Source of the DNA: Candidatus Woesearchaeota archaeon
GTDB lineage: Archaea; Nanobdellota; Nanobdellia; UBA10117; ARS21
NCBI GenBank assembly: GCA_038128845.1
Contig: JAYPKL010000001.1
Location: 42,338 to 106,337, forward strand
DNA length: 64,000 bases
Direction: 5' to 3'
Position 1 is the first letter of the stretch. Every line of letters begins with the position of its first letter. Below, one piece after another: positions 1 to 62,399 of this stretch. The notes under the pieces were generated by a model that was not told the origin of the DNA, ran no database searches, and saw nothing but the letters and a program-made list of their open reading frames with translations. A program made the position numbers and the translations under genes.

Positions 1-40
1 AAGCTGTGAACTAATATAAAGATTTCTGGAAAAAAAGATA

Positions 41-601
41 TTAAACAATGTTTTTGAAAGTTCCGCCAGTTGATGCTTGACCTGAAAAGTCAATATCGAA
101 ATAGAATAATGTTCCCACTGGATATGTTGTAACATTAATTAGACATCCTGATGTTAAATTCATAACCAATGTTTTCTTTGCAGATACGCCTAAATCTGTT
201 CCGAATCCTGAAACTGCTGCTGCGTCAGAGGAGGAATTTACATTTTGAGTAGAACAAATTAATGCTTGGTCTTTATCTTTAAGCAATAAAGTTGTTGTTG
301 GAGAAGATGATCCTGAATCCATAGGAATTGGTTGAGCTCCTACGTTTGAAATAACTAAAGTTAAATTGCCACCAGTTTCACTTGTTTCACCTTCATATTG
401 AGCTAAATCAACTAAAATTTGAGAATTAAGATATTCATTTAATGAATCTCCGAATTGTTCTGAACTACCTGTGAAAGATGATTGTAATCTAAGTACCCAG
501 AAAAATGCTGCACCTGCTGCTGCAACAGTCATCATCATTAAAAGAATAATTGCAATAATAGGTGTAATTCCTTTTTTGCTTTTTATTCTTAAAAACTTCA
601 T
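41..601 (-). CDS. archaeal type IV pilin-like protein with class III (prepilin) signal peptide
   Basis: N-terminus MKFLRIKSKKG|ITPIIAIILLMMMTVAAAGAAFFW: a short basic leader ending in KG, then a ~22-aa hydrophobic helix. It is a paralog of the 2993 and 3543 ORFs, sharing the N-terminus and the C-terminal FSG(K/Q)xxTGGxF motif. It carries many N-x-S/T sequons. Confidence 0.6.
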   Translation of the reverse strand: MKFLRIKSKKGITPIIAIILLMMMTVAAAGAAFFWVLRLQSSFTGSSEQFGDSLNEYLNSQILVDLAQYEGETSETGGNLTLVISNVGAQPIPMDSGSSSPTTTLLLKDKDQALICSTQNVNSSSDAAAVSGFGTDLGVSAKKTLVMNLTSGCLINVTTYPVGTLFYFDIDFSGQASTGGTFKNIV

Positions 602-819
602 TTTAATCTTCTAATTAATCTTGCAAGTAAAATTGCTACAACTAATAAAACGACACTTGAGAATGCTGTAAAGAATGTTGTTAAAGATATCCAGCTTAAT
701 TCATTTAAAGATACTGCTGTAGATGCTTGATTGATTAAATAAAGAACTGAAACAATCCATACAGTTAAAACTGCTAATAATCCGCCTTCAACAAAATCAG
801 GTTTATCTTGTCGTCTCAT
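598..819 (-). CDS. small two-TM membrane protein (hypothetical); 4-bp overlap with downstream pilin gene
   Basis: 73-aa ORF with two hydrophobic segments. ATGA-type overlap with 41..601 suggests co-transcription. Confidence 0.35.
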   Translation of the reverse strand: MRRQDKPDFVEGGLLAVLTVWIVSVLYLINQASTAVSLNELSWISLTTFFTAFSSVVLLVVAILLARLIRRLK

Positions 820-860
820 ATAAATTAATTGTTTTATTGTTTATATAGTTTTTTGAAAAA

Positions 861-2465
861 TTACATTTGGTCAGGTAATTCTTGTTTCATTTGCTTTGCT
901 GCAATAATATCATCAATTCTTAAAAGCATGATTGAAACATCACTTGCAGATGAAATTGCTTGTTTTTTTATTTTACTTGGTTCTATAACACCATTTTTCC
1001 ACATATCTTCAACTTTTCCGTTGTAAACATTTAATCCAAAATATACATTTTTACTATCATGTTTTGACTTTAATGAAGCCAAAGTATCAATTGGATCTAG
1101 ACCTGCATTTTCTGCAAGAGTTACTGGAATAACTTCTAAAGAATCTGCAAATGCTCTTATTGCTAATTGTTCTCTTCCCGAAAAAGAATCTGCGTATTTT
1201 CTAATTCCACTCGATAAAGCTAGTTCAACAGCTGCTCCGCCTGCAACTATTTTTCCTGTGGATAATGCCGCCGAAAGATCGCCAATAGCATCAGTTAATG
1301 CTCTTTCGATTTCAGAAACAACATGTTCACTTCCGCCTCTTACAAAAAGAGTAACGGACTTTGGATTATTACATTTTTCAACAAAAGTCATATGTTCTCC
1401 GGAAATTTTTCTTTCTTCAACTAATCCTGCAGAACCTAAATCTTCTTCTGAAATTTCTTTAATTGAAGTTAAAATTTTTGCACCAGTTGCTTTTACTAAT
1501 CTTTTCATATCTGATTCTTTCATTCTTCTAATCGCGAAAATATTATTTTTGGCAAGATAATGTTGAGCAACATCGTCAATACCTTTTTGACAAAATACTG
1601 CATTTGCTCCAGAATCGGTAATTCTTTGAACCATTTCTTTTAACATTCTTTCTTCTTGTTCAATAAATTCTTGAACTTGAAGCGGAGAAGTTATTTGAAT
1701 TTTTGCGTCAATTTCGGTATCTTTAACTTCGATTGGAGTGTCTAATAACAATACTTTTACATTTTTGATTAATCTAGGCATTGAAGTATGAACTCTTTCT
1801 TTATCGATAACTAAACCGTCGATTAATTCAGAATTTTCAGTATCAGAACCTGCCTTTTTTTCTATTTTAATATCGTTCAGATCTATAATAATTTGATTAT
1901 CTGTTTCTTCTGCAACTTTTTTGATAGCAGAAACTGACATGGACGCTAATTTTTTCTTAGTTTCTAATTCTACATTTTTACCAGTCATAGCAGTTATTGA
2001 AATTTGTTCTAAAAGTTTAGTATCTTTTATTAAAATTGGATTTGAAATTTTATTCAATATTTCTTGAGCTTTTCTGGCTGCAAGTTCATAACCTTTAGAA
2101 ATTACTGTGGGGTGGATATTTTTTTCAATAAGTTTTTCTGCATTATTTAATAATTCTCCTGCTAAAATTACTGCAGTAGTTGTACCGTCACCAACTTCTG
2201 ATTCCTGTACTTTTGCAACTTCAACTAACATTTTTGCAGCCGGATGTTGTACTTCCATTTCATCAAGAATTGTAACTCCGTCATTTGTTATAGTTACGTG
2301 GCCCGAAGAACTTACAATCATTTTATCCATTCCTTTTGGACCTAAGGTAGTTCTAACGGTATCAGCTAAAGCTTTAGCTGCAGCAATATTTGATTTTTGT
2401 GCATTTTTTCCAGAATCTCGAGTAGATCCTTCTGGTAAAATATAAATAGGTTGCATATTATTCAT
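861..2465 (-). CDS. ths: thermosome subunit (group II chaperonin, Cpn60/TCP-1 family)
   Basis: 534 aa. Has the [11 protein letters not shown] signature, a GDGTTT ATP-binding motif and the overall group II chaperonin architecture. Confidence 0.9.
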
Positions 2466-2539
2466 TTCAAATCTTAGTGAGTAAGATTTTTAAGAGGTAG
2501 TTTTAGCAAGAATTTTAATATAAAACAACAATATAATTT

Positions 2540-2962
2540 ATGAACGATGAATTCGAATTAATTTCGGTTAAAGAACTTAAAAATTTGAAAGAAGAGTTAA
2601 TTGAATTGAAGAAATCTCCTAAGATTAAATCAAATTCAAATAATCCTAAAGAATATGTCAATATATTTAATTCAATATCTCGAATTGAAAATAAATTTGA
2701 GATTACAATAAAAAATTTGAATAAAATGATGAATAAACTTGATAAAATAAGTTCTATTTTTGATTCAGATATTCAAACCGAAGAAGAAGATATTAACAAA
2801 TTAAATGAGTTAATTTCCAGGCTGGAAAACTTAGAAAAATCAAACAAAGAGCTATCCGATAAAACTGAATCATTGCATAATTCGATAAAAAGAAAATCTT
2901 ATTTCAATGAAAGATTTCCTAATGGATTATCATTAAAATATAAACGTACAAAAACTCTGTAA
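2540..2962 (+). CDS. hypothetical coiled-coil protein
   Basis: 140 aa, K/E/L/N-rich heptad-like sequence with no recognisable catalytic motif. Divergent from the thermosome gene. Confidence 0.4.
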   Translation: MNDEFELISVKELKNLKEELIELKKSPKIKSNSNNPKEYVNIFNSISRIENKFEITIKNLNKMMNKLDKISSIFDSDIQTEEEDINKLNELISRLENLEKSNKELSDKTESLHNSIKRKSYFNERFPNGLSLKYKRTKTL

Positions 2963-2992
2963 AACTTATATACTAAGATAAACATTTTTTTT

Positions 2993-3550
2993 ATGAGAAA
3001 AGGACTTACTCCAGTTATAGCTATGATATTACTTCTTATGATGACCGTAGCTGCAGCGGGTGCAAGTTTTTATTGGTTACTTGGTCTTCAGGGCGAGCTT
3101 CAGGGCGGAACTCAGCAATTTCAAGAGCAAACATTTGAAAGAATGACTTCCGATGTTCAGTGGATGAGTGCAAGTTTTGAAAGAAATGGGACTGGCGACG
3201 ATAATGGAACATTGATGTTAACTATTATGAACACTGGAACAACCAAAATACCAATAAATAATGGTACAACAAGTCCGAAGGTTCAATGGACATTATATGA
3301 TTCTGAGCAAGATTTCATCTGTACTTCAGACTGGTCAAATACTGCAGACATAGTTATTTGTAATAGTGGATGTACATCCGAATTAGCACTAAAGGAAGTA
3401 AGAACAATCAATTTAACCGTTGATGGCAATAATTCATGTAGTTTAAATTCAACTACGACTTATCCGGATGACACATTAATTTATGTTGATATATCCTTTA
3501 GTGGTAAAACCACAACATCAGGAACTTTCAGGGTGGATACCGATGATTAA
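2993..3550 (+). CDS. archaeal type IV pilin-like protein (class III signal peptide)
   Basis: MRKG|LTPVIAMILLLMMTVAAAGASFYW N-terminus. Paralog of 41..601 and 3543..4052. C-terminal FSGKTTTSGTF motif. Multiple N-glycosylation sequons (NGT, NNGT, NLT, NNS, NST). Confidence 0.6.
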   Translation: MRKGLTPVIAMILLLMMTVAAAGASFYWLLGLQGELQGGTQQFQEQTFERMTSDVQWMSASFERNGTGDDNGTLMLTIMNTGTTKIPINNGTTSPKVQWTLYDSEQDFICTSDWSNTADIVICNSGCTSELALKEVRTINLTVDGNNSCSLNSTTTYPDDTLIYVDISFSGKTTTSGTFRVDTDD

Positions 3551-4052
3551 TAAAAAGGGACTTACTCCAATAATAGCAGTAATATTATTGATGATGATGA
3601 CGGTTGCTGCAGCAGGTGCAGGATTTTTCTGGTTTGTTAGAATTCAAGGAGAATTACAATCTGGAGGGGAAAATTATGCAACAGATTTAGGTGAAACTAT
3701 AAATTCCAATCTATATGTGGTTAATTCAGAATATGATTCCGGGGATTTAAAATTAATCGTAAGAAATACTGGAGGAGTAAACATACCTGTAAATAAAGGT
3801 CTTGATTCGCCTACTACTTCGATAATTCTGAATCAAGGAGATGGTCAAGTAATTTGTAATACTTTCTTAGGAAGTACAATTGCTGAGTGTACAAAAGGTT
3901 GTGGGAATGACATACTTGTTGGTGAAACTCAGGAAATTAACATAGATCTATCGGGAGATTGTTCTCTTACAAGTTATTCTGAAGATACTAGCATTTCATT
4001 TTCTATGGACTTTTCTGGTAAAGCTGGCACAGGCGGAGAATTCAGATTATAA
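3543..4052 (+). CDS. archaeal type IV pilin-like protein (class III signal peptide)
   Basis: Start chosen at MINKKG|LTPIIAVILLMMMTVAAAGAGFFW (internal Met of track ORF 3483..4052). Overlaps the upstream pilin stop by 8 bp (ATGATTAA). C-terminal FSGKAGTGGEF motif. Confidence 0.6.
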   Translation: MINKKGLTPIIAVILLMMMTVAAAGAGFFWFVRIQGELQSGGENYATDLGETINSNLYVVNSEYDSGDLKLIVRNTGGVNIPVNKGLDSPTTSIILNQGDGQVICNTFLGSTIAECTKGCGNDILVGETQEINIDLSGDCSLTSYSEDTSISFSMDFSGKAGTGGEFRL

Positions 4053-4085
4053 TAAGAGTTATATTAAAAAAATTAATATATTTTT

Positions 4086-5981
4086 ATGAAGGGTATATCT
4101 GAAATATTATCTATAACAATTGTAACATTAATTACTTTAACTGTATTTTCAGGTTTTTTTTATTGGTATTCGAATATTTCGGAAGATTCTAAAATTGGTT
4201 CAGAAGATTACACTAAAGAAATACAAAGTCAAATAATTACAACTTCAAATAAAATAATAGATGACTTGTATGATGTTTCAAAGGAAAAAAACATTAACAA
4301 TTTTGGAGAATTAACCTATACTATTGAAGCAGAAGATGGTCCAATTTCAATAGATTCAGAAGATTCAAGTTTTTCTCTATATGAAGGATATGGTTCGAAT
4401 ACTGAACTAATTTGTTCAGATTTTGGTTTAAATTGTAATTGTGAAAATGAAATACAAAAAATCTTTGGAGTTTTAGTTAATAATGATACTACTAAAGGAA
4501 TATACTTTTTAGAATATGATTCGATTAATGGCTTTTCTGAAAAACAATTGAAAATTTTTGGAAATTCAAATAATATTAGAAGATGCGATATAAGATATTT
4601 TGATCAATTTGTTGAGGGCGGAAATGATTGTAATGAGCCTAAAAACTTACTTGCAACAGGTTATTGTACTGATGATGATTCTTTTTATGAAAAAGCCACA
4701 TTCGTTTTAGATTCAAATTTAGATGGTAGTTACTATGATCTTTATGATACTGGAGATTTAGAAAAAATATTTGATGTTCAATTTGTAAATGATATTTTAG
4801 TTGATGATACATATCATTTATTCTCTGGTGCTTTTACAGATTATTTCAATGATTCAAATTACAATAAACAAGTTCTGTCTTTTAGCGATTTGATTTACGG
4901 AGATTATGAAAATCTAGGTTCATTTGGATTACTTCCAACTGAAACAGGAAATGCTGGATTGGCAGTAACTGCGATGGAACTTGTTTATCGAAATAATTAT
5001 CCTGCTTTACTCTTCGGAACCAGTCACGAAGAAGCAACTATAACAGGTGGAGCATATTTGGCAATTTCAGATGAACCTGAAAATAATGCAATATTCCAGG
5101 GAAATTTTAGGGCTTTTACTTCAGGATTTGATTGTCCATATGATATGGGTACTTTCTTAAGTGCAGGATTTGATATAGCTAAAATTGCCAATTGCGATAT
5201 TGATTTTAACTCAGTAGTAGAAATTGTTAAAACCGACTTGGTTGAAGATACTTATATTGATTCAGATCCTGTTATTTTAGGTTTAAATGAAGTTACAGAT
5301 GGAATCACAACTTTACCGATTGCAGTATTTTTTACAGATTATAATTACACTTCAACAAGAATTTATAACTTAGATTTAAGTACACTTGGTTTACCGCTTG
5401 ATGTAAAAATTACTCATATGTTTTATGATGATTCAAATGATAGAGTTTTTATTTTACTTGAGTCGACTATTCCTGGTTCTTTAACTACTCAAGTTATTGT
5501 GATTGATCATAATTTTGTTACATTAACTCCTCATTTAATCGAATTGAGTGGTGCAATAGACCCAAGTCTTGATGTGGAAAGTTTTACTGTAATAAATAAC
5601 ACTTTATTTTTTGGAGGGAATTATAATGATGGTATGGGAACCAATCAATCGGAAATATATACTGCCGTATTTGATGAAGAAACATTTGGATTATCTTCCG
5701 TTAATAGAGTGTATAGTAACAATACATTTTACTCTGTTTCAAATTTAGTTACTTTGAATTTATGTGAAGAAAAATCTCCATATTTAGAAACGGAATGTGA
5801 TATAAAACGAGGAGAATCTTGTGAAATAATTTTAAATATTGAAGATACTGATTGTGATATATCGGATTATCCTTCTGAAACTCAATTTTCTTCAACTTTA
5901 ACATTTGGAAAAAATAAAATCTATGAAATATTTAAGAAAGGGAGTGATCCGAGCGAGGAAACGGATTTAGTAGTTGTATGA
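4086..5981 (+). CDS. large secreted or pilus-associated protein with pilin-like N-terminal helix
   Basis: 631 aa. N-terminus MKG|ISEILSITIVTLITLTVFSGFFYW (hydrophobic helix after a KG leader). Asp/Cys-rich body. First gene of an overlapping operon (stop overlaps the next start). Confidence 0.5.
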   Translation: MKGISEILSITIVTLITLTVFSGFFYWYSNISEDSKIGSEDYTKEIQSQIITTSNKIIDDLYDVSKEKNINNFGELTYTIEAEDGPISIDSEDSSFSLYEGYGSNTELICSDFGLNCNCENEIQKIFGVLVNNDTTKGIYFLEYDSINGFSEKQLKIFGNSNNIRRCDIRYFDQFVEGGNDCNEPKNLLATGYCTDDDSFYEKATFVLDSNLDGSYYDLYDTGDLEKIFDVQFVNDILVDDTYHLFSGAFTDYFNDSNYNKQVLSFSDLIYGDYENLGSFGLLPTETGNAGLAVTAMELVYRNNYPALLFGTSHEEATITGGAYLAISDEPENNAIFQGNFRAFTSGFDCPYDMGTFLSAGFDIAKIANCDIDFNSVVEIVKTDLVEDTYIDSDPVILGLNEVTDGITTLPIAVFFTDYNYTSTRIYNLDLSTLGLPLDVKITHMFYDDSNDRVFILLESTIPGSLTTQVIVIDHNFVTLTPHLIELSGAIDPSLDVESFTVINNTLFFGGNYNDGMGTNQSEIYTAVFDEETFGLSSVNRVYSNNTFYSVSNLVTLNLCEEKSPYLETECDIKRGESCEIILNIEDTDCDISDYPSETQFSSTLTFGKNKIYEIFKKGSDPSEETDLVVV

Positions 5982-6601
5982 AAGGACAATCTCAAGTTGT
6001 TGGATTTACAGTAATAACACTAATAATGCTATCTATAACTTCAATTGTATTTCTTTGGGCACAGCCATTAATAGAAAGATCTGTTGATTTTAACAACATA
6101 GATAGAATGGAAAATCAAATGATTAAACTAGATAATGCAATTAAAGAAGTTGCATATGATAAATCTCAAAAAAGTATTAAATTTCAAATAGATTCTGGAA
6201 ATTTAATTTGGGAAAGAAATAATACAATTAACTATTATTCCGATCAGAATTTGCCTTTTTCTTCCGGTGAAAAGATATTAGTTAAGGGAACTTTAATAGG
6301 ATCGGATAATACAACTGCAACAAGTCCGTGTTATAATACTTCAATAAATGGTAGTGTTGGATTGGATGAATCTTCTTGTCTATATAAACAAGGTTCAAAT
6401 TTTCAATTATATTATCCGGTTTTAAACGACACATCGGGAAATTGTTTTGCAATAAGAGTTATACCTGGTAAAAATGCAGGAACTTCGGAAGGTACATATA
6501 CAATAGAATTAAAGTATAATCAAACAATAACAACAGCATATTCTATTGACAATGGATGTTCAACAATTTACAAACCAGAAATAATATTTAATATAAAATG
6601 A
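5978..6601 (+). CDS. minor pilin-like protein
   Basis: MKG|QSQVVGFTVITLIMLSITSIVFLW N-terminus. 207 aa. ATGA overlap on both sides. Confidence 0.5.
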   Translation: MKGQSQVVGFTVITLIMLSITSIVFLWAQPLIERSVDFNNIDRMENQMIKLDNAIKEVAYDKSQKSIKFQIDSGNLIWERNNTINYYSDQNLPFSSGEKILVKGTLIGSDNTTATSPCYNTSINGSVGLDESSCLYKQGSNFQLYYPVLNDTSGNCFAIRVIPGKNAGTSEGTYTIELKYNQTITTAYSIDNGCSTIYKPEIIFNIK

Positions 6602-9318
6602 AGGGGCAAATAAATATAATATACATTGGAATTTTAACTTTAATTAGTATCGCAGTTTTTGGAACTATTTTAATTTGGAACTTTTCTGTAAGCGAATCAA
6701 CTTCAAATGAATTTAACGAAAAACAAATGGAAATAATTGCAACTCAAATATCTGAAGACATAAACTATTTATCTACTTTTGATAAAAATTCAGTTTATAC
6801 GATTAAAAAAGATTTACCATCGACTATTGGTGAAGATGATTATTGTATTAGATTAAATCAAGATGAATTGGGAAACAAAAGAATATATGTTTCTAAAAAG
6901 GGGAATTCACTATCTTATAACTCTTTCAAAAAAACGGATTTTTACATAGATTTCAATAATAAAGAGTTAAATTTTGAAAATTCAATATCTTGTGGCGGTA
7001 AAACAAATATTGTAAAAACTCAAAACTCAATTGAATTAACAACGTCATTAACTTCGGCAGCAACTATTGTTGACGCTCCTCCGACTATATCTACAATAAT
7101 AGATACTTCGACTAACGAAGACACTTCAAAAGATATTACTTTTACTGTTTCGGATGAAAATTTAGCTTCTTTAGCACTTTCTGCAATTTCTGGAAACACT
7201 ACTTTAGTTAATCAAACTGCAAACGGAGGATTAATTATCCCATCTGCGTCAGGATCTTCAAGAACTCTTACAATTAATCCAAATAATAATCAAAATGGAA
7301 TAGTGGAAATAAATATAACTGCAACGGACGGATCTTCTCAAACAGATATCGAATCATTTAATTTGACAATAAATTCTGTTGATGATGGTCCAACAACGCC
7401 AACCGTAATTTATTCGCCTTCTTCAAATAGAAAAGTTGGTGATTCCTTAACTTGTGTCGCATCAAGTACTGATCCGGAAGGAGACTCAATAAGTTATTCA
7501 TATCAATTTAGAAATGGTTCTGAATCTGGAACCATAATTCAAGATTTTAGTTCAGATAATACCATTGACTCTATTTCTGCAACTTATGCTCATGAAGCAA
7601 TTTATTGTATTGCTTATGCAACTTCAAATTCAATTGATTCTTCTAGCAGTATTGCAACTATTACTATCTCCAATACTGATCCGAGTTCTGCAAGTCTATC
7701 TTCCAATACAATTAATGAAGGATCTAGTCCGGGTACTGCTGTGGGTGCAATAACTTGTACTGATGTGGATAATGATGTTTGCAGTTATACAGAGTATGCA
7801 CCAGGTCATAACGGATCTTCCATATTTGAAATAAGCGGTACATCTATTGTTCTATCTAGTGGTCAAAATTTAGATTTTGAAACGGATAATAGTTATAATT
7901 ATTCTGTGCTAGTAGATGACGGTTTTGGGGGGGATATATATCAAGAATTTAACATATCTGTTACTGATATAAATGAGGTACCGACGGATATAACTCCTAA
8001 CTCATTAACTATAAATGAAAATTCTCCAATTAATAGTGAAGTTGGTACTTTAACAGTAACAGATTCGGATTCTGGAGATTCTCATACTTTTACTGAATTA
8101 ACGGGTGGAACGGGGGAATCTTATTTTAATATTAGTTCTTCTGGTGTTGTTGAAGTTGAAGAAAATTCAATACTCAATTATGAATCAGGAACAACAAGCT
8201 ATACTTACGAAGTTAGAGTTACTGATTCAGGTTCTTTAACTTATAATGAAATAATTACAATTAATATTTTGGATGTTAATGAAGCTCCAGTAACTTTCGA
8301 AGATTCATATTCAATGGATCAAGATACAACATTGAATATTATTGAATCGGAAGGTGTTCTTGCTAATGATACGGACCCAGATTCCGATACTTTAACTGCA
8401 ACTTTAGTTAATGATGTATCCACGGGATCGTTGAGTTTGGCTTCAGATGGTTCATTTACTTATACTCCGGTTATTGGATTTACAGGAACGGTTGAATTTA
8501 ATTATTCGGCAGGAGATGGAGGAATAAGTTCATTGCCCGAAAATGTAACCATTACTGTAAATGCTGTATCAAATAATGCGCCGGTTGCTTCAGCAGATTC
8601 AGCCGCAGTAAATGAAGACACAACTCTTTCCGATACATTGACTGCTGCAGATATAGATGGAGACTCATTGACTTTTTCCATAGTTTCACAAGCATCAAAC
8701 GGAGTAGCTACAATTACAAACTCGACAACTGGGGCTTTCAACTATGTTCCGGGCGCAAATTATAATGGAGCGGATTCATTTACTTTCAAAGCAAATGATG
8801 GAACAGATAATTCAAATACAGCTACATTTTCAATAACAATTAATTCGGTAAATGATGCTCCAATTTGGTCTCCAGTAATTCCTGATAAAACAGTGGGAGT
8901 TTCGGAATCCACTAACATAGATTTATTTACATATCATTTGGATGTTGACGGTAGTGATTTAGCAACAAGTTTTTCAATAAATTCAATATCTCCGCCATCG
9001 CCAGATTTTACTTGTAGTATAACTTCAGATCAATATCTTGATTGTATTTGGAATTCTGCTCCTCCCGCTCTGCCTCAACTATTTGATGTTACTGTTAATG
9101 CAGATGATGGAAATGGTGGAAGTGCTACGGATACGGTTGCTATAACAGTAGATCCTTCTGCAGGTGGAAGCTGTCAACCTATTCCTGATCCGAGTCTTTG
9201 TGATCCTACTTATGATCCTGAAGAGTATCCTGAAGCAAGTCATGATGGAAGAAGTTGTTATAGAAGTCAAGATGATTGTGATAACAGTGTATCTCCAATT
9301 GGAGCATATTTAGGATAA
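6598..9318 (+). CDS. pilin-headed adhesin with tandem cadherin-like repeats
   Basis: 906 aa. MKG|QINIIYIGILTLISIAVFGTILIW N-terminus. Body has ~100-aa repeats ending in D-x-N-(D/E)-x-P linkers (SVDDGP, TDINEVP, LDVNEAP, SVNDAP) typical of cadherin or VCBS-like domains. Cys-rich C-terminus. Confidence 0.6.
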   Translation: MKGQINIIYIGILTLISIAVFGTILIWNFSVSESTSNEFNEKQMEIIATQISEDINYLSTFDKNSVYTIKKDLPSTIGEDDYCIRLNQDELGNKRIYVSKKGNSLSYNSFKKTDFYIDFNNKELNFENSISCGGKTNIVKTQNSIELTTSLTSAATIVDAPPTISTIIDTSTNEDTSKDITFTVSDENLASLALSAISGNTTLVNQTANGGLIIPSASGSSRTLTINPNNNQNGIVEINITATDGSSQTDIESFNLTINSVDDGPTTPTVIYSPSSNRKVGDSLTCVASSTDPEGDSISYSYQFRNGSESGTIIQDFSSDNTIDSISATYAHEAIYCIAYATSNSIDSSSSIATITISNTDPSSASLSSNTINEGSSPGTAVGAITCTDVDNDVCSYTEYAPGHNGSSIFEISGTSIVLSSGQNLDFETDNSYNYSVLVDDGFGGDIYQEFNISVTDINEVPTDITPNSLTINENSPINSEVGTLTVTDSDSGDSHTFTELTGGTGESYFNISSSGVVEVEENSILNYESGTTSYTYEVRVTDSGSLTYNEIITINILDVNEAPVTFEDSYSMDQDTTLNIIESEGVLANDTDPDSDTLTATLVNDVSTGSLSLASDGSFTYTPVIGFTGTVEFNYSAGDGGISSLPENVTITVNAVSNNAPVASADSAAVNEDTTLSDTLTAADIDGDSLTFSIVSQASNGVATITNSTTGAFNYVPGANYNGADSFTFKANDGTDNSNTATFSITINSVNDAPIWSPVIPDKTVGVSESTNIDLFTYHLDVDGSDLATSFSINSISPPSPDFTCSITSDQYLDCIWNSAPPALPQLFDVTVNADDGNGGSATDTVAITVDPSAGGSCQPIPDPSLCDPTYDPEEYPEASHDGRSCYRSQDDCDNSVSPIGAYLG

Positions 9319-9355
9319 CTAAAAAAACATATATAATAAAATAACAATAATAAAT

Positions 9356-11035
9356 ATGTTAAATAAGAGGGCAATCCGACTTTTAAATAAATATAAGAAT
9401 AATAATTCAAATATCAATAAAAAAGAGATTTTACAGAATAATTCTAACATAAAAATTGATGAAGAAGTTGAAACAAAACTAAAAGTAAAATTACCGCAAG
9501 ATCACATTTCACATAAGTCTGCAGAAGAAAATATATTGGAAGAATTAAGAAATGTTAATGAAAATTATCCTTTGATTACGGCAAATATAAATAATCAAAC
9601 TATAATTCTTGCAAGTGCCCATATTTATTTTGATGATGAAAATCAAACTCTGAAGTATAATGTAATTGAGCCAAAATTAAATGAATATATGCATGAGATT
9701 ATAAACAGAACAATTGAAGAATTACATGAGAATTTAGATTTAGAATTTGAAAATCTAAAAAATAAAGATGAAATTCAAAAATATTTACATAAAAAAATTG
9801 AAGATATATGGAATAAAATGAATTTACAACCATCGCCAGAAAATTCAATGATCTTGAAGTACTATACTGTGAGACAAGTTTCTGGATTGGAAATAATTGA
9901 TGCCATAATGCAAGATCCGAATATTGAAGATATATCTTGTGATGGGATAGGAATGCCTATTTTCATATTTCATAGAAATCCAGTTTATGGTGAAATGTCA
10001 ACCAATATTTCATTTAATTCTAAACAAGACTTAGATTCTTTTTGTATGAGACTTGCACAGAAGGCAAAAAGATCAATATCGGTTGCAAATCCGTTAATGG
10101 ATGGATCTTTAGAAGATGGATCAAGAGTACAAATTACTTATGGTACCGATATTTCCAGAAGAGGAAGTAATTTTACAATAAGAAAATTTTTCAAAAATCC
10201 CCTTAGTCCAATTGACTTAATGAAATTTGAAACAGTTGATGCAATAACTTTAGCTTACTTATGGTATGCAATTGAAATGGAAAAATCAATTCTAGTTGCA
10301 GGTTCAACTGCATCAGGTAAAACTACTTTCTTAAATTCAATTTCATTATTTATAAGGCCAAATGATAAAATTGTTTCAATTGAAGATACTTCTGAACTTC
10401 AAATACCTCGCGCTAATTGGATTCCTCAAGTAACTCGAACCGGTTTTGGTCCTGAAAAATATGGTGAAATCGATATGCACAATCTTCTAAAATCTTCTTT
10501 AAGACAAAGACCCGATTATTTAATTGTTGGAGAAGTTCGAGGTGTGGAAGCTGAAGTATTATTTCAGGCCATGGCTACAGGTCATCCGGGCTTATCTACA
10601 ATCCATGCAGACAATGTAGCGGCAGTAATAGATCGTTTGAGTACGCCTCCAATTCAATTGCCATTATCTGTACTTCAAAATTTGGATATTATTGTTTTCT
10701 TAGAAAAAATGAAGAAGGAAGGTAAATTTTTTAGAAAACTTAAGAAAGTAGTAGAAGTTGAAGGTTTTGATGCAAAGAATAAAGAACTAAAAATTAATGA
10801 TGCGATTGTATATGATCCAAAAACAAATCAATTAACTAAAAATGAAAGTTTTATTTTATCCACAATAGCTGAGTCAAATGCAAAAAATCATGAACATGTT
10901 CTGGATGAAATAATGAGAAGATCTAATATTTTGAAATGGATGTATGAAAAGGAGATTACTAGATTTGAGGAAGTTAACAAAATAATTACTACTTATTACG
11001 CCAATCCTGAATCAGTATTAAATATGATAAAATGA
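9356..11035 (+). CDS. type IV pilus/archaellum assembly ATPase (FlaI/PilB/TadA, VirB11-like family)
   Basis: Walker A VAGSTASGKTTFLNS, Walker B/Asp box DYLIVGEVRG, downstream His box TGHPG. 559 aa with an N-terminal extension typical of archaeal FlaI-like ATPases. Confidence 0.85.
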   Translation: MLNKRAIRLLNKYKNNNSNINKKEILQNNSNIKIDEEVETKLKVKLPQDHISHKSAEENILEELRNVNENYPLITANINNQTIILASAHIYFDDENQTLKYNVIEPKLNEYMHEIINRTIEELHENLDLEFENLKNKDEIQKYLHKKIEDIWNKMNLQPSPENSMILKYYTVRQVSGLEIIDAIMQDPNIEDISCDGIGMPIFIFHRNPVYGEMSTNISFNSKQDLDSFCMRLAQKAKRSISVANPLMDGSLEDGSRVQITYGTDISRRGSNFTIRKFFKNPLSPIDLMKFETVDAITLAYLWYAIEMEKSILVAGSTASGKTTFLNSISLFIRPNDKIVSIEDTSELQIPRANWIPQVTRTGFGPEKYGEIDMHNLLKSSLRQRPDYLIVGEVRGVEAEVLFQAMATGHPGLSTIHADNVAAVIDRLSTPPIQLPLSVLQNLDIIVFLEKMKKEGKFFRKLKKVVEVEGFDAKNKELKINDAIVYDPKTNQLTKNESFILSTIAESNAKNHEHVLDEIMRRSNILKWMYEKEITRFEEVNKIITTYYANPESVLNMIK

Positions 11036-11901
11036 ATTTATCAAATCGAGCAACTAGTTTATTTGGAAAATATGTAAATTCTGAAAATTTTTTATTTAAA
11101 AATTTGAAACAAAAATTAAAACAAGCTAAAATAAAATTACCCGTTGAAACATATGGTTCCATTATATTTTTAGTGCTATTTTCGTCATTTATAGTTTCTC
11201 TAATTTTTTTATTATTTCTTAGTATTTTAACTGTGGGTATTAATTTTTCAGCAATACTAATGAATTTTATTGTTGCAATTTTTGTAGGACTAATTTGCGG
11301 AACTTTTACGTATTTTTATCCTAATTTTATTATTAGTGAAAAGAAAGGAAAAATTGAAAATTCACTTGCATTTGTTTCAATTTATATGTCGACATTAACA
11401 AAGTCTGGTTTCCAACCTCAAAATATATTCAAAATGTTGAGCAAATTTGATGATTATCCTGCTGCAGCAAATGAAGCACGGAAAATTAATCATGAGGTAA
11501 ATAAATTGGGAATGGATTTACGTACATCAATCTCTAAAGCAATAGAAAGGTCTCCTTCTCCAGATTGGACGGAATTTTTATCGGGTATAAAAAATAGTAT
11601 TGAATCAGGCGGAAACTTAGATAAATATCTTGAAGAAAAAGCAAAAGGATATACGGGAGATTACAAACGAAAATTAGAATCTTTTGGAAAAACTTTAACT
11701 TTATTGATGAACTTATACATAACAGTAATAATTGTTGGTACAATTTTTTTCATAATAGTTTCTTCACTAATGGGTGCAGTCGGTGGTATCTCTGTGGGAA
11801 CTATAAAATTATTTCATTATATTACGGTATTTGGAGGTTTACCGCTTATAACAGCAATTCTAATAACTTTAGTTAAAAGTGCTTCGCCATGGTCAGAATA
11901 G
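11032..11901 (+). CDS. pilus platform membrane protein, N-terminal half (T2SS-F/TadB/FlaJ-like)
   Basis: 289 aa polytopic membrane protein immediately downstream of the ATPase and overlapping it (ATGA). Assigned by position and topology; it forms a split pair with the next ORF. Confidence 0.5.
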   Translation: MNLSNRATSLFGKYVNSENFLFKNLKQKLKQAKIKLPVETYGSIIFLVLFSSFIVSLIFLLFLSILTVGINFSAILMNFIVAIFVGLICGTFTYFYPNFIISEKKGKIENSLAFVSIYMSTLTKSGFQPQNIFKMLSKFDDYPAAANEARKINHEVNKLGMDLRTSISKAIERSPSPDWTEFLSGIKNSIESGGNLDKYLEEKAKGYTGDYKRKLESFGKTLTLLMNLYITVIIVGTIFFIIVSSLMGAVGGISVGTIKLFHYITVFGGLPLITAILITLVKSASPWSE

Positions 11902-13028
11902 AAGAACTAAAGAAACAAAAAAAATTATATTATACTCTACTGGCTCTGCCATTGCCTCTAATTTTGGGAGCTTTGGCTTTTGTATTTGGTGCATCTTCAA
12001 CATTTGCAATAGCTTTGATATCAATTGGGTTAATACTTGTTGTTCTTCCTTCAATGATTTTATCTTTTTTAGAATTTAGAGATATTAAATCTTCGGAAGA
12101 TAATTTTCCAAATTTTCTTGACGATTTGTCTCAATCTTCTTCTGCAGGGATGAATCTACCTCAGGCAATTTCGGTTGCAAGTAAAACTAGCTATGGTAAA
12201 TTGACTTCCCACATCAAACAATTGAATATATGGTTAACTTGGAACATGGCATTCCCGGCCGCATGGAAAAAATTTACAAAAAGATTGGATGCAAGTCCGC
12301 TTATAAGAAGAGTTAATGGTATAATTATTGAAGCGTTTAATGGAGGCGGAGACGTGAATAAAACTCTTGGATCTTTAGCTGCCGATGTTAATATAATAAA
12401 AGATATGGAGGCAGAAAGAAGATCAATAATGCAACAGCAAATAGTAATTATGTATATTATTTTCTTTGTATTTATTGGAGTAATCATCGCATTATACAAA
12501 ATTCTTTCTCCAATACTTTATGTTCAACAGATTGGTTCGTTTTCTGGAATTGGAATTCAAGGTTCTGGAACATTATCTATCGAATACTTTAGAAATTTAT
12601 TTTTTGTAATGACTTTAGTTGAGGCAGTTTGTGCAGGTCTAATTGCAGGTCAAATTGCGGAAGAAAAATTAGTTGCAGGAGTAAAACATATTGTAATAAT
12701 GACTGCAAGTACAATTTTAATTTTCTTTATTTTTGTATTTCCTACAACACTTTCCGTAGACATATCTGTTTATCCGAGTCAAACATTTACGGAAGGAAAA
12801 GTTACTTTTACAGGAAAAGCTTTTTCAGAGGGAGCTCCGGTAACGGGAGCAGATGTAACTATAATTGATTATGATAATACAATAATAAATTTATTTACGG
12901 ATAATGCAGGAGAATTTAGATATGTTTGGAACGCTCCTGAAGTACCGGGAAATTATACTGTCGGTTTAACAATTGAACATGAGGGGGAAGTTAAGAGCTT
13001 TAGACGAAGTATCTTTGTAGAAAATTGA
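11889..13028 (+). CDS. pilus platform membrane protein, C-terminal half (TadC/FlaJ-like) with C-terminal beta-sandwich extension
   Basis: 379 aa with multiple TM helices, then a soluble C-terminal ~90 aa (GKVTFTGKAF...VTGADVTIIDYDNTIINLFTDNAGEFRY...PGNYTV) resembling a carboxypeptidase-regulatory or Ig-like fold. Confidence 0.5.
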   Translation: MVRIEELKKQKKLYYTLLALPLPLILGALAFVFGASSTFAIALISIGLILVVLPSMILSFLEFRDIKSSEDNFPNFLDDLSQSSSAGMNLPQAISVASKTSYGKLTSHIKQLNIWLTWNMAFPAAWKKFTKRLDASPLIRRVNGIIIEAFNGGGDVNKTLGSLAADVNIIKDMEAERRSIMQQQIVIMYIIFFVFIGVIIALYKILSPILYVQQIGSFSGIGIQGSGTLSIEYFRNLFFVMTLVEAVCAGLIAGQIAEEKLVAGVKHIVIMTASTILIFFIFVFPTTLSVDISVYPSQTFTEGKVTFTGKAFSEGAPVTGADVTIIDYDNTIINLFTDNAGEFRYVWNAPEVPGNYTVGLTIEHEGEVKSFRRSIFVEN

Positions 13029-14080
13029 AAAAAGGGTATGCAGTAGGTGAATTTATTTTAGTATCATTTTTTTTTCTAATTTTAGTTGTTTTAATTATTA
13101 ACAGATTTACAGATTATACTTTGATTGAATTAAATAAATTTGAAGATTATCAAGAATGTGAAAATTCAATAAAAAATTTTGAGAAACTATTTGATGACGA
13201 ATTAGTAATGACTGCAAATTCAAATTTAAGTTCAATTATATCCAATTATACTTCTGAGGGAAATAACATCTCTATATTAAATTCCAATATTACTCAATTG
13301 GGATTTTCATCTGGGAAAAATAAACTAAATTATACCAGTTTAAATTTAATTTTTAATAATTTAAGAATATTTGATTGGAATGAATATGAAAATTCATATG
13401 ATAGTTTTTCAATAAATGTTGAACCGTATGCAGTTAATGTTGAATCTATTTATTCCGATGAGTCGAATATAACCGGATTCTATGGTGAAACTAGAGCGAA
13501 TATTTGGTTAAATGATTCGGTTACAAATTCGAACACAGTTCATTATACAATAGGATTAAGTGCATATGAAACTTCGGGCTACGATTCTATTTTTGAATTT
13601 GTTATTTTAATTCCAAATGCCACAGTATTGGGTTCATTAGATCCCGGATTGTCTAATTCTGGTTCTAATTCTCAATATCTGAAAATTAGTGGTTCAATTG
13701 AACCAAATACAAGCAGGGAAACAGTATATTTTTCATATTCTTCAGATACAACAAATTATATTGGATGGGGAGACGATTATGCAAACTATGGTTTAAATTA
13801 TGAAGAGATACAAAATATTACTAAAAAAAATAATCTAATTATTTTTGATAAAATAAAATTTTATGATCAAGAAACTAAAAAGGAATTAGACATAGTTTTT
13901 GGAAACAATACAAATTTAAATTTAAATTGGGGTCCGGAAAATGCAGAAGGTTGTAAATATAGTAGAATATATTTAATTGAAGATGATTCAAAAAGAATTA
14001 ATTACACAATAAACGGATTCGTTAAAGAAATAAATATTAATCCGAAAATTTATTCAAAGATTGAGGTTGTATCGAGATGA
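13025..14080 (+). CDS. minor pilin-like protein
   Basis: MKKG|YAVGEFILVSFFFLILVVLIINRF: KG leader, hydrophobic helix and Glu at about +6 as in type IV prepilins. N-x-S/T rich. Overlapping starts. Confidence 0.45.
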   Translation: MKKGYAVGEFILVSFFFLILVVLIINRFTDYTLIELNKFEDYQECENSIKNFEKLFDDELVMTANSNLSSIISNYTSEGNNISILNSNITQLGFSSGKNKLNYTSLNLIFNNLRIFDWNEYENSYDSFSINVEPYAVNVESIYSDESNITGFYGETRANIWLNDSVTNSNTVHYTIGLSAYETSGYDSIFEFVILIPNATVLGSLDPGLSNSGSNSQYLKISGSIEPNTSRETVYFSYSSDTTNYIGWGDDYANYGLNYEEIQNITKKNNLIIFDKIKFYDQETKKELDIVFGNNTNLNLNWGPENAEGCKYSRIYLIEDDSKRINYTINGFVKEININPKIYSKIEVVSR

Positions 14081-14463
14081 ATAAGAAAGGATATGTTTAT
14101 TTTATTGAAATTATTTTATCTTTAATATTTGTAGTTTTTTTATTTTTTTCTTTGAAACCGAGCACTGCGGAATACGAGTATGATGATAAATTTTCACAAG
14201 ATATTCTGTATATTTTATATTATCAAGATTTGATAAAATATGATCTTAATGATACTAATTCATTTGAGAGTTATGTAAATAATAGTATAGTCGGTCTTAT
14301 TGGATATACAAAAGATTTTGAAATTAATTATAATCTTGATGAAACTTCTTTTAGTGGTAACTCGAATAAAGTAAATAGTGATTTATCCAATGGATATATT
14401 CATTCTAAAAATTTGAATAATAATTGGTATACAATAAACCTGTATACTTGGAGTAAATTATGA
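14077..14463 (+). CDS. minor pilin-like protein
   Basis: MNKKG|YVYFIEIILSLIFVVFLFFSL N-terminus. 128 aa. Confidence 0.45.
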   Translation: MNKKGYVYFIEIILSLIFVVFLFFSLKPSTAEYEYDDKFSQDILYILYYQDLIKYDLNDTNSFESYVNNSIVGLIGYTKDFEINYNLDETSFSGNSNKVNSDLSNGYIHSKNLNNNWYTINLYTWSKL

Positions 14464-15089
14464 GAGGTCAATTTTTCTTAATAGGCATAATTGTTACTGC
14501 AGTAATATTATTGCTATCTCTAAATGTTTTATCCTCGAATGAAAAAATATTTTTATCAGACGATAAGGAAAAGTATTTTGATAATTTTAACTTTGCATAT
14601 GAATATTCGATTCCAGGAAATTGGGAATATTTTGATGAAGCGTATCGCAGCACAATTGGAATATGTATAAATCCGTCCAATCAAAGTATGACAAATTGGT
14701 GGAATACTTCTATTAAGTTAAATAGCGAAAATGATTGTGTTTTTACCTCAGAAAACTATCATGTGACGCAGGGTAATGAGTGTACTTTATTTATCAATGC
14801 ATCAAACTTATCTTCTTATTTAGATTCAGATACTAATTGTGGTAATTTTATTTTCTATTACAATTCGACTTCGGGTATTGAAGAAAGTAATGCGTCACAA
14901 GGAACAACTGGATTGAATATATCTTTGGTTTCAGAAGAATCAATTACTAATTCGCCTATAAATTCTTCAATAAATATAACTAAATTTTACTTAGAAAAAA
15001 ATATTCTGGTAGATGAGACTGCTTATTCTTCTGGTACATACACTATAAATTATAGTTCTGAAAACTTAGATTTTGAAGGAACAATTTAG
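14460..15089 (+). CDS. minor pilin-like protein
   Basis: MRG|QFFLIGIIVTAVILLLSLNVL N-terminus. 209 aa, many N-glycosylation sequons. Last gene of the operon. Confidence 0.45.
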   Translation: MRGQFFLIGIIVTAVILLLSLNVLSSNEKIFLSDDKEKYFDNFNFAYEYSIPGNWEYFDEAYRSTIGICINPSNQSMTNWWNTSIKLNSENDCVFTSENYHVTQGNECTLFINASNLSSYLDSDTNCGNFIFYYNSTSGIEESNASQGTTGLNISLVSEESITNSPINSSINITKFYLEKNILVDETAYSSGTYTINYSSENLDFEGTI

Positions 15090-57035: not shown

Positions 57036-57809
57036 TTAGATTTGAGCTAGAAATACTCTAAAGATAATGTCGGGATAATTTAAACTAAAAATTATTGCAA
57101 TAAAAAATGCCGGAGCAAAAGCAATTCCACCTTTAACTTTAACATATTGTTTGTGTTTTTTAATAAGTTCAATATCCTTTTTTAACACTCCAATCTTTCT
57201 TGGAGAATATATTAATTTGTTTTTATGGTAAATTTTCTCGGTAACCCAATCTCCTTCCACCAGATCTTTTGTACTTATTTTTTTATCAAAATAATTAAGT
57301 TGAATTATATAACTTAAATACATAGTTAGAATTATTAAAAAAATAAATCCAATTGGGTAAAATAATATTAATGAAATTATGCTAATCAAAAATAATTCTT
57401 TAACATATTTTTTATTTTTAATTTCGTTTAAATTTTTAAAAGTGTTAAATAAAACAATTAGTATTGAATAAATTCCTCCAGCTAAAATTAAATTTATACT
57501 AAATTCTAAAATAAATGGAATTGTATTTTTTAATATTGCTCCGGCAGATGATATACCAATTAATAATTTTGCATCACCTCCGCCCCAATTTCCGCTAAAA
57601 AATAGTCCCAGACCAATTATGCTTCCTAAAAACATTGAAACTAAATAATCTGTAAAAAGTAATTGTTTAGTTATTGCAAAATAAATGTGAAAAATTAAAC
57701 CTATTAAAATTAAACCATTCGTTAGTATATCTGGAATTTCATATTTGTATAAGTCTATTGGCAAAGATAATACTATTGCGAATATTATTAATCCAATTAA
57801 AAAGTCCAT
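57036..57809 (-). CDS. archaeal prepilin/preflagellin peptidase (A24 family, PibD/FlaK/EppA-like)
   Basis: Polytopic 257 aa with an NWGGGDAKLL motif (GxGD-KLL second catalytic Asp box of type IV prepilin peptidases). The window encodes more than 9 class-III-signal-peptide substrates. Confidence 0.6.
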   Translation of the reverse strand: MDFLIGLIIFAIVLSLPIDLYKYEIPDILTNGLILIGLIFHIYFAITKQLLFTDYLVSMFLGSIIGLGLFFSGNWGGGDAKLLIGISSAGAILKNTIPFILEFSINLILAGGIYSILIVLFNTFKNLNEIKNKKYVKELFLISIISLILFYPIGFIFLIILTMYLSYIIQLNYFDKKISTKDLVEGDWVTEKIYHKNKLIYSPRKIGVLKKDIELIKKHKQYVKVKGGIAFAPAFFIAIIFSLNYPDIIFRVFLAQI

Positions 57810-62295: not shown

Positions 62296-62399
62296 GGGCG
62301 TATAGCTTAGTCTGGTAGAGCGCTGGTCTTATAAGGCCACTTCCGAAATGGAAGATCTGAGTATACCAGAGGTCCCAGGTTCAAATCCTGGTTCGCCCA
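62296..62399 (+). tRNA. intron-containing tRNA with anticodon UAU (tRNA-Ile, AUA-reading); ~30-nt intron at canonical 37/38 position (about 62334..62363)
   Basis: Acceptor GGGCGTA/TTCGCCC (one U-U mismatch), D-arm GCTT...GAGC, anticodon stem CTGGT/ACCAG with loop CTTATA^(intron)T, T-arm CCAGG-TTCAAAT-CCTGG, discriminator A. The intron contains the hairpin CTTCC-GAAAT-GGAAG. Confidence 0.6.

Follow-up and report, generated by a model that had tools for sequence, protein, structure and literature searches.

The window analysed here is the whole stretch of 64,000 nucleotides (nt) from a marine Candidatus Woesearchaeota archaeon, a member of the DPANN archaea. It has about 29% G+C and an archaeal gene content that includes a Hel308-type helicase, PolD, a family-B polymerase, Cdc48, LonB and AglB/STT3. 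Our subject is a pilus locus between the thermosome gene (861-2465, minus strand) and the helicase gene, and within it an open reading frame (ORF) of 906 amino acids (aa) at 6598-9318 on the plus strand, which we interpret as a modular minor pilin gene coding for a pilin module, seven β-sandwich domains and a tail. From thermosome to helicase the gene order is a 140-aa coiled-coil protein, pilins of 185 and 170 aa, three proteins with MKG N-termini (631, 207 and 906 aa), an ATPase, a two-gene platform and three pilin-like genes. An earlier note on this DNA, made without database searches, had described the 906-aa protein as cadherin repeats fused to a pilin-type N-terminal helix; the ORF exists as described there. 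The note had also taken the three MKG proteins to be large, pilin-anchored and co-expressed. Their N-termini are real, and the three genes overlap by ATGA start/stop sequences, which indicates translational coupling, but the 207-aa protein is not large. In the whole window, nine ORFs begin with [KR][GA] followed by a hydrophobic stretch, and all nine lie within 41-15089, clustered about the ATPase and platform genes, a distribution far from chance. Several contigs related to the locus belong to marine metagenome assemblies, some of them from Tara Oceans. The orthologues of 906 aa are 94% identical to our protein, and a 99% identical database fragment is labelled 'cadherin domain-containing protein, partial [Candidatus Woesearchaeota archaeon]'.

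The 906-aa protein begins M-K-G/Q-INIIYIGILTLISIAVFGTILIW, where the slash marks the predicted cleavage site. A 23-residue hydrophobic stretch, beginning at residue 5, stands directly after the leader, and mean Kyte-Doolittle hydropathy is 2.23 over the 20 residues from the second residue after the glycine. We predict a class III signal-peptide leader, M-K-G (6598-6606), with cleavage between the invariant residues G3 and Q4. When a profile of residues 1-163 was searched exhaustively with HMMER against 1.84 billion representative proteins, only 11 matched, indicating that the pilin module belongs to a narrow, fast-evolving family. In the alignment of 12 homologues, G3, Q4, Y9, G11, L13, T14, F21 and W27 are invariant. 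The leaders vary from 3 to 6 residues (MKG, MKHG, MKKG, MKRG, MENKDG), yet the glycine always directly precedes the glutamine; class III signal peptides are laid out in this way, with the cleavage site ahead of the hydrophobic domain.

The module that follows (6607-7068, plus strand, aa 4-157) comprises a hydrophobic α1 helix and a small β-sheet head with cysteines C83 and C132. AlphaFold2, run on residues 1-162 with the homologue alignment, predicted a helix unbroken from residue 2 to residue 59 and packed on a β-sheet (predicted local distance difference test score, pLDDT, 76; predicted template modelling score, pTM, 0.64). In this model, residues 1-157 have the long N-terminal α-helix on an antiparallel β-sheet that defines the pilin fold, a 'lollipop', and fold matches of the module include the tip-complex pseudopilins GspI, XcpV and EpsI. 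A linker of about 14 residues, rich in Ser, Thr, Ala and Pro (TSLTSAATIVDAPP), joins the module to the stalk. The protein therefore has the make-up of a modular pilin, that is, a pilin module, a short linker and domains that are not pilus-specific. The N-terminus behaves as prepilin-type, as the earlier note had read it, and not as an ordinary Sec signal, on the evidence of the invariant G-1 and Q+1, the 58-residue helix on a β-sheet, the operon, an A24 peptidase gene in the window and relatives that consist of the module alone. The label 'type IV prepilin', however, is better replaced by 'archaeal class III signal peptide', since the organism is an archaeon.

The stalk consists of seven domains (D1 to D7). 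Against Pfam, the whole protein scored 152 bits for Big_9, 134 for Cadherin_4, 97 for Cadherin_5 and 59.6 for Cadherin (PF00028), and the NCBIfam tandem-95 repeat model NF012211 reached 139.6 bits (cut-off 90) over three stretches. We then assigned the domains from separate family scans of every piece obtained by splitting the protein at its linkers; all lie on the plus strand. D1 (7069-7383, aa 158-262) is a Big_9, or bacterial-Ig, β-sandwich (29.6 bits; gathering threshold, GA, 23.6), all-β in the AlphaFold2 model with pLDDT block means of 64-85, and is kept in every stalk-bearing orthologue. D2 (7384-7677, aa 263-360) is a divergent PKD-like β-sandwich that scored 21.2 bits, below the PKD GA of 23.5, and is modelled as all-β with pLDDT 56-75. 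D3 and D4 (7678-8283, aa 361-562) are classical cadherin domains, with PF00028 scores of 34.0 and 39.0 bits (GA 28.8). They matched cadherin-23 EC1-2 by phmmer (E 7e-9) with the XEX, DxDxD, D-x-E and DxNE-xP positions conserved, the aligned calcium-site motifs being INEGS, DVDND, LDFET and DINEVP in D3 and INENS, DSDSGD, NYES and DVNEAP in D4. These two domains, then, combine PF00028 scores above threshold with putative inter-domain Ca2+ sites, as judged by the XEX, DXD, DRE and DXNDNxP motifs. D5 and D6 (8284-8859, aa 563-754) are of tandem-95, Big_9 and Cadherin_4/5 type (62-70 bits; pLDDT about 80-96). D7 (8860-9153, aa 755-852) is a Big_9-like β-sandwich with C806 and C816 (23.0 bits, GA 23.6; pLDDT 71-90) and is 28% identical to D6.

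The full-length AlphaFold2 model has seven all-β domains over residues 165-852, with pLDDT mostly 70-95. The best Foldseek matches of the stalk in the PDB were protocadherin and cadherin ectodomains (E 1e-22 to 1e-17), and the RTX-adhesin extender 6xi1 was also returned. Thus, tested against Ig and cadherin folds, the repeats match them by Pfam and NCBIfam as well as by Foldseek (E 1e-22), as the earlier note had expected. That note had counted at least six repeats of about 100 aa joined by linkers of the form D-x-N-(D/E)-x-P. The β-sandwiches are indeed about 100 aa long; there are seven, and they are not uniform: they fall into at least three subtypes, no two share more than 36% identity, and PF00028 domains are confined to D3 and D4. 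The motifs it quoted lie within a few codons of the positions it gave (SVDDGP at aa 260, nt 7375; TDINEVP at aa 456, nt 7963; LDVNEAP at aa 558, nt 8269; SVNDAP at aa 750, nt 8845; NDTDPDSD at aa 590; ADIDGDS at aa 684), whereas the strict linker signature occurs only as DINEVP and DVNEAP.

The protein ends in an acidic, Pro-rich tail of 54 aa (9154-9315, aa 853-906), the distal end of the stalk. It contains four cysteines (C859, C868, C887 and C894), and is what the earlier note had called a Cys-rich module; it has no family match, and its pLDDT is mostly below 50 (per-10-residue means 35-61). In other alleles, a Gly/Pro-rich tail stands in its place. The protein also carries 14 N-x-S/T sequons, and the window codes for an AglB/STT3 oligosaccharyltransferase (21609-24098, plus strand); together these suggest that the stalk is probably N-glycosylated. 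We found no Pfam match to a PilY1/PilC β-propeller in the 906-aa protein, the 631-aa protein or the other proteins of the locus. By its predicted architecture, the 906-aa protein is not a tip adhesin of the PilY1/PilC type and is itself pilin-anchored.

Orthologous contigs keep the entire gene order of the locus. In a more distant relative, represented by contigs L008 and L009 (68-71% identity in the ATPase, 80% in the thermosome), all genes have a counterpart, and the slot of the 906-aa gene is filled by P0127, a protein of 153 aa homologous to residues 1-152 (E 3e-19). P0127 was found on 22 contigs and stops where the stalk would begin. A metagenome scan with an ATPase profile added 17 loci, so that the slot could be compared over 18; the corresponding search of genome contigs had as its sole match an unrelated bacterial one (Hellea) and added no taxonomic breadth. 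Synteny of the pilus genes is kept in all 18 loci, those with pilin-only homologues included. In eight loci, the slot holds the pilin module only (150-156 aa). In L013 and L014, and in the 5'-truncated L012, it holds a 437-aa allele with the module, D1 and a region of about 175 aa that includes a Cys-rich tail and had no window-domain match in the slot scan. L001, L002 and L017, with the 5'-truncated L016, have alleles of 506-521 aa composed of the module, D1, one other domain and D7. Seven domains are present both in the 875-882-aa alleles of L003 and L018, which end in the Gly/Pro-rich tail, and in the 906-aa alleles of the window and L011, which end in the Cys-rich tail. D7 occurs in nearly all stalk-bearing orthologues, though it was not detected in the 437-aa alleles; its identity to our D7 is 99% in the 906-aa alleles versus 40-46% in the alleles of about 510 aa and of 875-882 aa.

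A pilin-only allele was also present in the close clade, in L015 (ATPase 85% identical). There, an intact 207-aa orthologue lies upstream with the ATGA overlap, and the allele stops 33 nt short of the ATPase start, immediately before the conserved AT-rich element that it shares with the window. The intact neighbour, the overlap and the element together indicate a clean stalk-less allele and not a frameshift. By contrast, we rejected P0121 and P0122 (211-232 aa) as stand-alone modules, because their contigs, L004 and L005, are error-ridden: the thermosome is split into five ORFs, which marks P0121 and P0122 as frameshift artefacts. Genuine stand-alone modules were supplied by the HMMER search and by the syntenic loci. 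As a separate observation on these contigs (ENA ERZ28548078, 'hoskyn_2', long-read-style), the spurious short proteins P0121, P0122 and P0124 sit in the database as separate clusters.

Because the module stands alone at the same slot in relatives, we conclude that it is the conserved structural part and the stalk an add-on. Grafted on in particular lineages, the stalk varies in length (0, about three or seven domains), and stalk-less and stalk-bearing alleles coexist in ocean metagenomes. Repeat number therefore does vary across relatives, as the earlier note had anticipated, but phase variation by repeat slippage is unsupported. Tandem Repeats Finder detected no array of period greater than 10 nt in 4000-9400, and we rejected slipped-strand variation since there is no tandem array in the DNA and no pair of domains exceeds 36% identity. 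Length variation at this slot is instead allelic gain, loss and exchange of domains.

The locus is unevenly diverged. Identity to L001/L002 and to L008, respectively, is 92% and 80% for the thermosome, 85% and 69% for the ATPase, 84-90% and 66-70% for the platform, 88-93% and 63-73% for the small pilins, and 76% and 54% for the 207-aa protein; it falls to 47-61% and 32% for the downstream pilin-like proteins and to 39% and 33% for the 631-aa protein. The 906-aa protein can be aligned to these relatives only in the module and D1 (the N-terminal 270-280 residues or so), where identity is 61-64%. In comparison with the near-identical L011, the ratio of nonsynonymous to synonymous substitution rates (dN/dS) was 0.02-0.04 for the machinery and major pilins, 0.14 for the 906-aa gene and 0.18 for the 631-aa gene. 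From these values, both of the latter genes are functional and under purifying selection, with constraint five- to seven-fold weaker. Gene-wide positive selection in the 906-aa gene was considered and rejected (pairwise dN/dS 0.14 against L011, with no domain above 0.18); the data indicate evolution that is relaxed or diversifying relative to the core genes, not dN/dS above 1. Nucleotide identity to L011 is 96-99% except over residues 400-449, where it is 68% (dS 0.9) and where the window instead matches L018 at 93%. Against L003, identity is about 70% in the module and 91-95% over residues 500-649. This mosaic indicates that lineages exchange domain cassettes by recombination, and its pattern marks D3 as a recombinant cassette.

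The remaining genes supply candidates for the other parts of a pilus. Two conserved small pilins are the candidate major subunits: the 185-aa protein (2993-3550, plus strand; leader MRKG/LTP; Arch_flagellin 35.4 bits) and the 170-aa protein (3540-4052, plus strand; leader MINKKG/LTP). They matched TIGR02537 (arch_flag_Nterm) at 34.9 and 31 bits, cut-off 20, and neither has a single amino-acid difference from L011. A third pilin of archaellin/pilin type, 186 aa and divergently transcribed, lies on the minus strand at 41-601 (Arch_flagellin 31 bits, TIGR02537 33.6 bits). The 631-aa pilin-like protein (4086-5981, plus strand; MKG/ISE...) is a fast-evolving orphan recognised by its N-terminus and a weak UpsB N-terminal match; it had no Pfam match even at E values up to 5 and only 8 homologues in 5.8 billion clusters. 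Its length in the locus and its relatives ranges from 625 to 779 aa, and it is the most divergent gene of the locus. The 207-aa protein (5978-6601, plus strand; MKG/QSQ...), with ATGA overlaps on both sides, is a candidate minor pilin whose relatives begin with MKG, MMKG or MKTG before the glutamine. Downstream of the platform, three pilin-like genes of 351, 128 and 209 aa (13025-15089, plus strand) have the N-termini KKG/YAVGEF, KKG/YVYF and MRG/QFF; these N-termini are conserved in relatives, while the proteins evolve fast (32-61% identity). The locus thus mixes three N-terminal classes (G/LTP or G/ITP, G/Q and G/Y..GE). A +1 glutamine is present in three of its nine pilin-like genes and a +5 glutamate in one, the 351-aa gene (13025-14080, plus strand; KKG/YAVGEF), where it is kept in L002 and L008.

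The ATPase gene (9356-11035, plus strand) is of the FlaI/PilB-type T2SSE family (PF00437, 9e-35), with a FlaI score of 408 bits, below the cut-off of 550. The platform is split into 289 and 379 aa (11032-11901 and 11889-13028, plus strand); both halves match T2SSF, and their ArlJ/FlaJ matches are sub-threshold (ArlJ 94 bits against 550). We considered an archaellum, to which the Arch_flagellin matches of the three small pilins pointed, and rejected it: ArlH, ArlF/G and ArlC/D/E/X were not found between the thermosome and Hel308 genes, and this absence, the split platform and the sub-cut-off FlaI and ArlJ scores together indicate a pilus. Among archaeal type IV filaments, many pilins together with a split platform mark the 'System 1' (Epd-like) loci, which are reported in methanogens, Thermococcales and DPANN archaea (bioRxiv 10.64898/2026.04.22.720090). 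The locus, with its predicted two-gene platform next to the ATPase and nine pilin-like genes, has that organisation. The window also codes for a GxGD-type prepilin peptidase (Peptidase_A24; 57036-57809, minus strand; 257 aa), identified by PF01478 (32.2 bits, GA 26.5) and a G.GD motif, a candidate enzyme for processing the MKG leader. Predicted peptidase, ATPase and platform, the set expected to accompany archaeal pilins, are therefore all present.

Some further observations concern these genes. The 37-nt spacer between the 906-aa gene and the ATPase gene (9319-9355) contains an AT-rich, TATA-like element, AAAAAACATATATAATAAAATA, which is kept across alleles, including the stalk-less one (L015, 1159-1191; L018, about 4030-4065). 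It is probably an internal archaeal promoter; if so, the ATPase and platform genes may be transcribed apart from the minor-pilin genes. The second platform half (11889-13028, plus strand) ends in a β-sandwich of about 90 residues (residues ~300-379) with a weak CarboxypepD_reg match at aa 314-358. This domain looks extracellular and is fused to a TadC/FlaJ-like membrane protein, an arrangement unusual for platform proteins.

Together, these results lead us to favour, with a probability of roughly 60%, the reading of the 906-aa protein as a modular minor pilin in marine Woesearchaeota, belonging to an archaeal type IV pilus of the Epd-like 'System 1' kind. By analogy with bacterial modular pilins, it is probably located at the pilus tip, because bulky modular pilins clash within the shaft in the model of Streptococcus sanguinis PilB (PMC8179133). 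It is plausible that the protein is a pilus-borne adhesin. Its bacterial counterparts are S. sanguinis PilB, with a vWA module, and PilC, with a lectin module, and also CofB of enterotoxigenic Escherichia coli and TcpB of Vibrio cholerae. These proteins are minor subunits, coded together with the machinery and modelled or shown at the pilus tip (PMC8179133). With them, the 906-aa protein shares a small class III pilin module and a bulky, non-pilus-specific module attached to its C-terminal end by a short linker. It differs from them in being archaeal, in lacking the IPR012902 motif and a +5 glutamate, and in carrying, in place of a single globular module, a rod of seven cadherin/Ig domains whose number is polymorphic (0 to 7). 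The locus thereby extends from bacteria to archaea a principle, that of a module grafted onto a pilin, which is itself already known.

We propose the following scheme. Sec would insert the 906-aa protein into the membrane, and the A24 peptidase would remove the MKG leader. The pilin module might then join the 207-aa protein and the 631-aa protein, a candidate partner, in a tip or initiation complex, beneath which the 185- and 170-aa major pilins would polymerise, driven by the ATPase and platform. The stalk would project from the pilus tip; at about 4.5 nm for each of its seven domains, it would be roughly 30 nm long. Its acidic inter-domain linkers would probably bind Ca2+ and so stiffen it, while the outer domains and tail would bind a ligand on another cell or surface, D7 and the tail being the distal and most variable end. 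Alternatively, by analogy with CpaL or PilY1, the 631-aa protein could be the true tip adhesin.

Several observations weigh against our reading. Curated pilin and archaellin models (TIGR02537, PF01917 and others) gave no above-threshold match for the 906-aa protein, for which there was only a sub-threshold match to DUF7266 (20.3 bits, GA 27.6), and the IPR012902 prepilin N-methylation motif that is part of the definition of a bacterial modular pilin had no match. Assignment to the pilin class therefore rests on the signal layout, the predicted fold, the gene context and the stand-alone homologues. Position +5 is isoleucine and not the glutamate of EppA-type substrates; most archaeal pilins likewise lack this glutamate, and the processing sites of the Methanococcus maripaludis minor pilins EpdB and EpdC, KG/QV, have the same form as MKG/Q (PMC4371748). 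The three-residue leader is shorter than the five or more residues that FlaK requires, although PibD cleaves leaders down to 3 aa (PMC4307647). The A24 peptidase is untyped and lies 42 kb from the pilus locus, the linker may be flexible enough for shaft positions, and the stalk-less alleles show that the stalk is dispensable for the role of the pilus core. Finally, cleavage, filament incorporation, adhesion and host recognition are all steps that we infer.

What the stalk binds is a separate question from how it is displayed. The same modular pilus subunit might hold the archaeon to particles or polymers, or make its own cells aggregate homophilically, in place of recognising a host, a possibility that we hold only tentatively. 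In bacterial adhesins, whose ligands differ widely, cadherin, Big_9 and tandem-95 domains act as generic extenders, M. maripaludis Epd pili serve surface attachment, and stalk-less alleles persist in the ocean beside the stalk-bearing ones. On the other hand, DPANN archaea are generally regarded in the literature as host-dependent, and the cassette exchange, length polymorphism and hypervariable partners resemble those of partner-driven receptor-binding proteins, a circumstantial likeness. The stronger proposal that follows from this likeness is that the stalk is the host-range determinant of marine Woesearchaeota and evolves like a phage receptor-binding protein; we consider it unlikely. On this reading, a fixed carrier pilin at the pilus tip would gain, lose and swap cadherin/Ig cassettes through recombination in the population, with different alleles then targeting different hosts.

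With respect to display, the most serious rival is that the protein is a membrane-anchored surface adhesin, in which the class III N-terminus only anchors the protein or belongs to a short bindosome-like pseudopilus, so that the stalk sits on the envelope and there is no extended filament. Archaea attach many non-pilin proteins by class III signals, among them the sugar-binding proteins of the Sulfolobus bindosome and widespread substrate-binding proteins, and membrane-associated pilins of Haloferax volcanii mediate some adhesion without pili (PMC4371748). A stalk of about 30 nm could span the surface layer from the membrane, and for the 906-aa protein we only infer incorporation into a filament. 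Against this, the supposed anchor is a complete, conserved pilin-fold module, found alone at the same slot in relatives; the gene is coupled translationally to pilin-like genes and adjoins the assembly ATPase gene; and the solute-binding domains and adjacent ABC transporters of bindosome-type systems are both absent here. We therefore judge this explanation improbable. Relative to the Sulfolobus bindosome proteins, the shared features are a class III signal with a hydrophobic helix on a cargo and a dedicated type IV filament ATPase and platform, whereas an adhesin-type rod as cargo, a full globular pilin head and the absence of a nearby ABC transporter set our protein apart.

A further variant would repeat the module along the filament, as a shaft-decorating pilin that leaves the pilus bristling with cadherin stalks. 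The stalk is joined to the C-terminal end of the module by its Ser/Thr/Ala/Pro linker of some 14 residues, and Raynaud et al. leave a shaft location possible where the linker is flexible (PMC8179133). However, the 185- and 170-aa pilins, unchanged relative to L011, are the obvious major subunits; the best fold matches of the module include the tip pseudopilins GspI, XcpV and EpsI; the +1 glutamine and three-residue leader group the 906-aa protein with the minor-type genes and not with the LTP-type major pilins; and, in the bacterial protein that was modelled, bulky modules collide with the subunits next to them (PMC8179133). These findings make a shaft position distinctly improbable. Least likely is a cadherin-repeat protein that is secreted by an ordinary Sec route or anchored as a type II membrane protein, lies beside the pilus genes by coincidence and has nothing to do with the pilus in function: no curated pilin model exceeds its threshold, the near-identical database fragment is labelled just 'cadherin domain-containing protein', and the small-x-small triplet S17-I-A19 is readable as a signal peptidase I site, but residue 19 varies across homologues whereas G-1 and Q+1 are invariant, the 23-residue hydrophobic stretch differs from the short h-region of the true Sec signal in L001 (MKRAIVIISILLISVSFVFAG/Q), the helix runs to residue 59 and packs on the sheet as in pilins, and the pilus synteny is conserved in all 18 loci.

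Within archaea, a close system for comparison is the Epd pilus of M. maripaludis (System 1), with which the locus shares a split platform, a FlaI/PilB-type ATPase, multiple minor pilins and KG/Q sites. Unlike Epd, it has no detectable homology to Epd pilins, no DUF361 matches, no +5 glutamate in the 906-aa protein and no large EppA peptidase in the cluster; and whereas the Epd major pilin is headless, with a mature length of about 62 aa, the candidates here have 170-185 aa and an archaellin-like domain. The locus as predicted therefore resembles Epd in organisation and lacks what is specific to it, namely a clustered EppA-type peptidase, DUF361 pilins with +1 glutamine and +5 glutamate, and a headless major pilin. 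Adhesin-like and galactose-binding class III signal peptide proteins have been noted in Epd-type loci (PMC3875500), and 'adhesin-like' proteins of this kind in surveys of archaeal loci (PMC4858521); in function, the 906-aa protein as we read it agrees with these proteins as well as with the bacterial modular pilins. Our literature search found no paper that links DPANN archaea, cadherin domains and pili.

Among bacterial systems, the tip component CpaL of Tad pili is a pilin-like protein of about 600 aa (bioRxiv 10.64898/2026.02.14.705861), which on our reading is a further bacterial counterpart of the 906-aa protein. The Caulobacter CpaJ/CpaK/CpaL and the PilI-J-K and GspI-J-K complexes have no sequence homology to the proteins here, and any correspondence between subunits is conjecture. 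D5 and D6 share about 30-50% identity with bacterial tandem-95 repeats, and the VNDAP linker, the DxDGD acidic clusters and a Ca2+-binding extender architecture are held in common. Bacterial repeat adhesins (RTX extenders, for example PDB 6xi1), however, rely on type I secretion and retention or on cell-wall or other anchors, whereas here the anchor is a pilin module; RTX adhesins carry tens of domains and the 906-aa protein seven.

Two further observations concern the surroundings of the locus. In L001 and L004, the divergently transcribed pilin gene (that at 41-601 in the window) is followed by a 169-aa signal-less protein and then by a large protein with a Sec signal, of 684 aa in L004 and 1031 aa in L001 (L001, 1-3747, minus strand; L004, 567-3745, minus strand). 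L008 has a homologous pair of 167 and 785 aa (1-1460, minus strand), with the homologue of the 186-aa pilin on the plus strand. The 1031-aa protein of L001 has TSP3-type calcium-binding repeats and an ordinary Sec signal, MKRAIVIISILLISVSFVFAG/Q, with a short h-region, unlike the 23-residue stretch of the 906-aa protein. This operon would map to the left of window position 1, beyond 41-601, and its large secreted protein is a second, equally variable surface protein beside the pilus locus. At the other end of the window, an Rfam tRNA match (61 bits; 104 nt; 62296-62399, plus strand) was not reported by ARAGORN and is probably an intron-containing archaeal tRNA.

This locus is a concrete candidate for the means by which DPANN archaea locate their partners and stay attached to them. 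To date, pilus 'adhesins' of archaea have been pointed out in genome surveys only, without a defined architecture or evolutionary evidence; in the 906-aa protein, the carrier module and the effector stalk separate cleanly. Should it prove to be a generic surface adhesin, it would still be a well-annotated example, if one of limited general interest. In either case, the natural allelic series in ocean metagenomes (alleles without a stalk, with about three or seven domains, and with alternative tails) is a handle on DPANN attachment, because it makes possible both the correlation of alleles with co-occurring taxa and simple biochemistry. If the host-range reading were true, no host-recognition molecule would have been defined in a DPANN archaeon before this pilin-anchored stalk, which would also be the first archaeal modular pilin.

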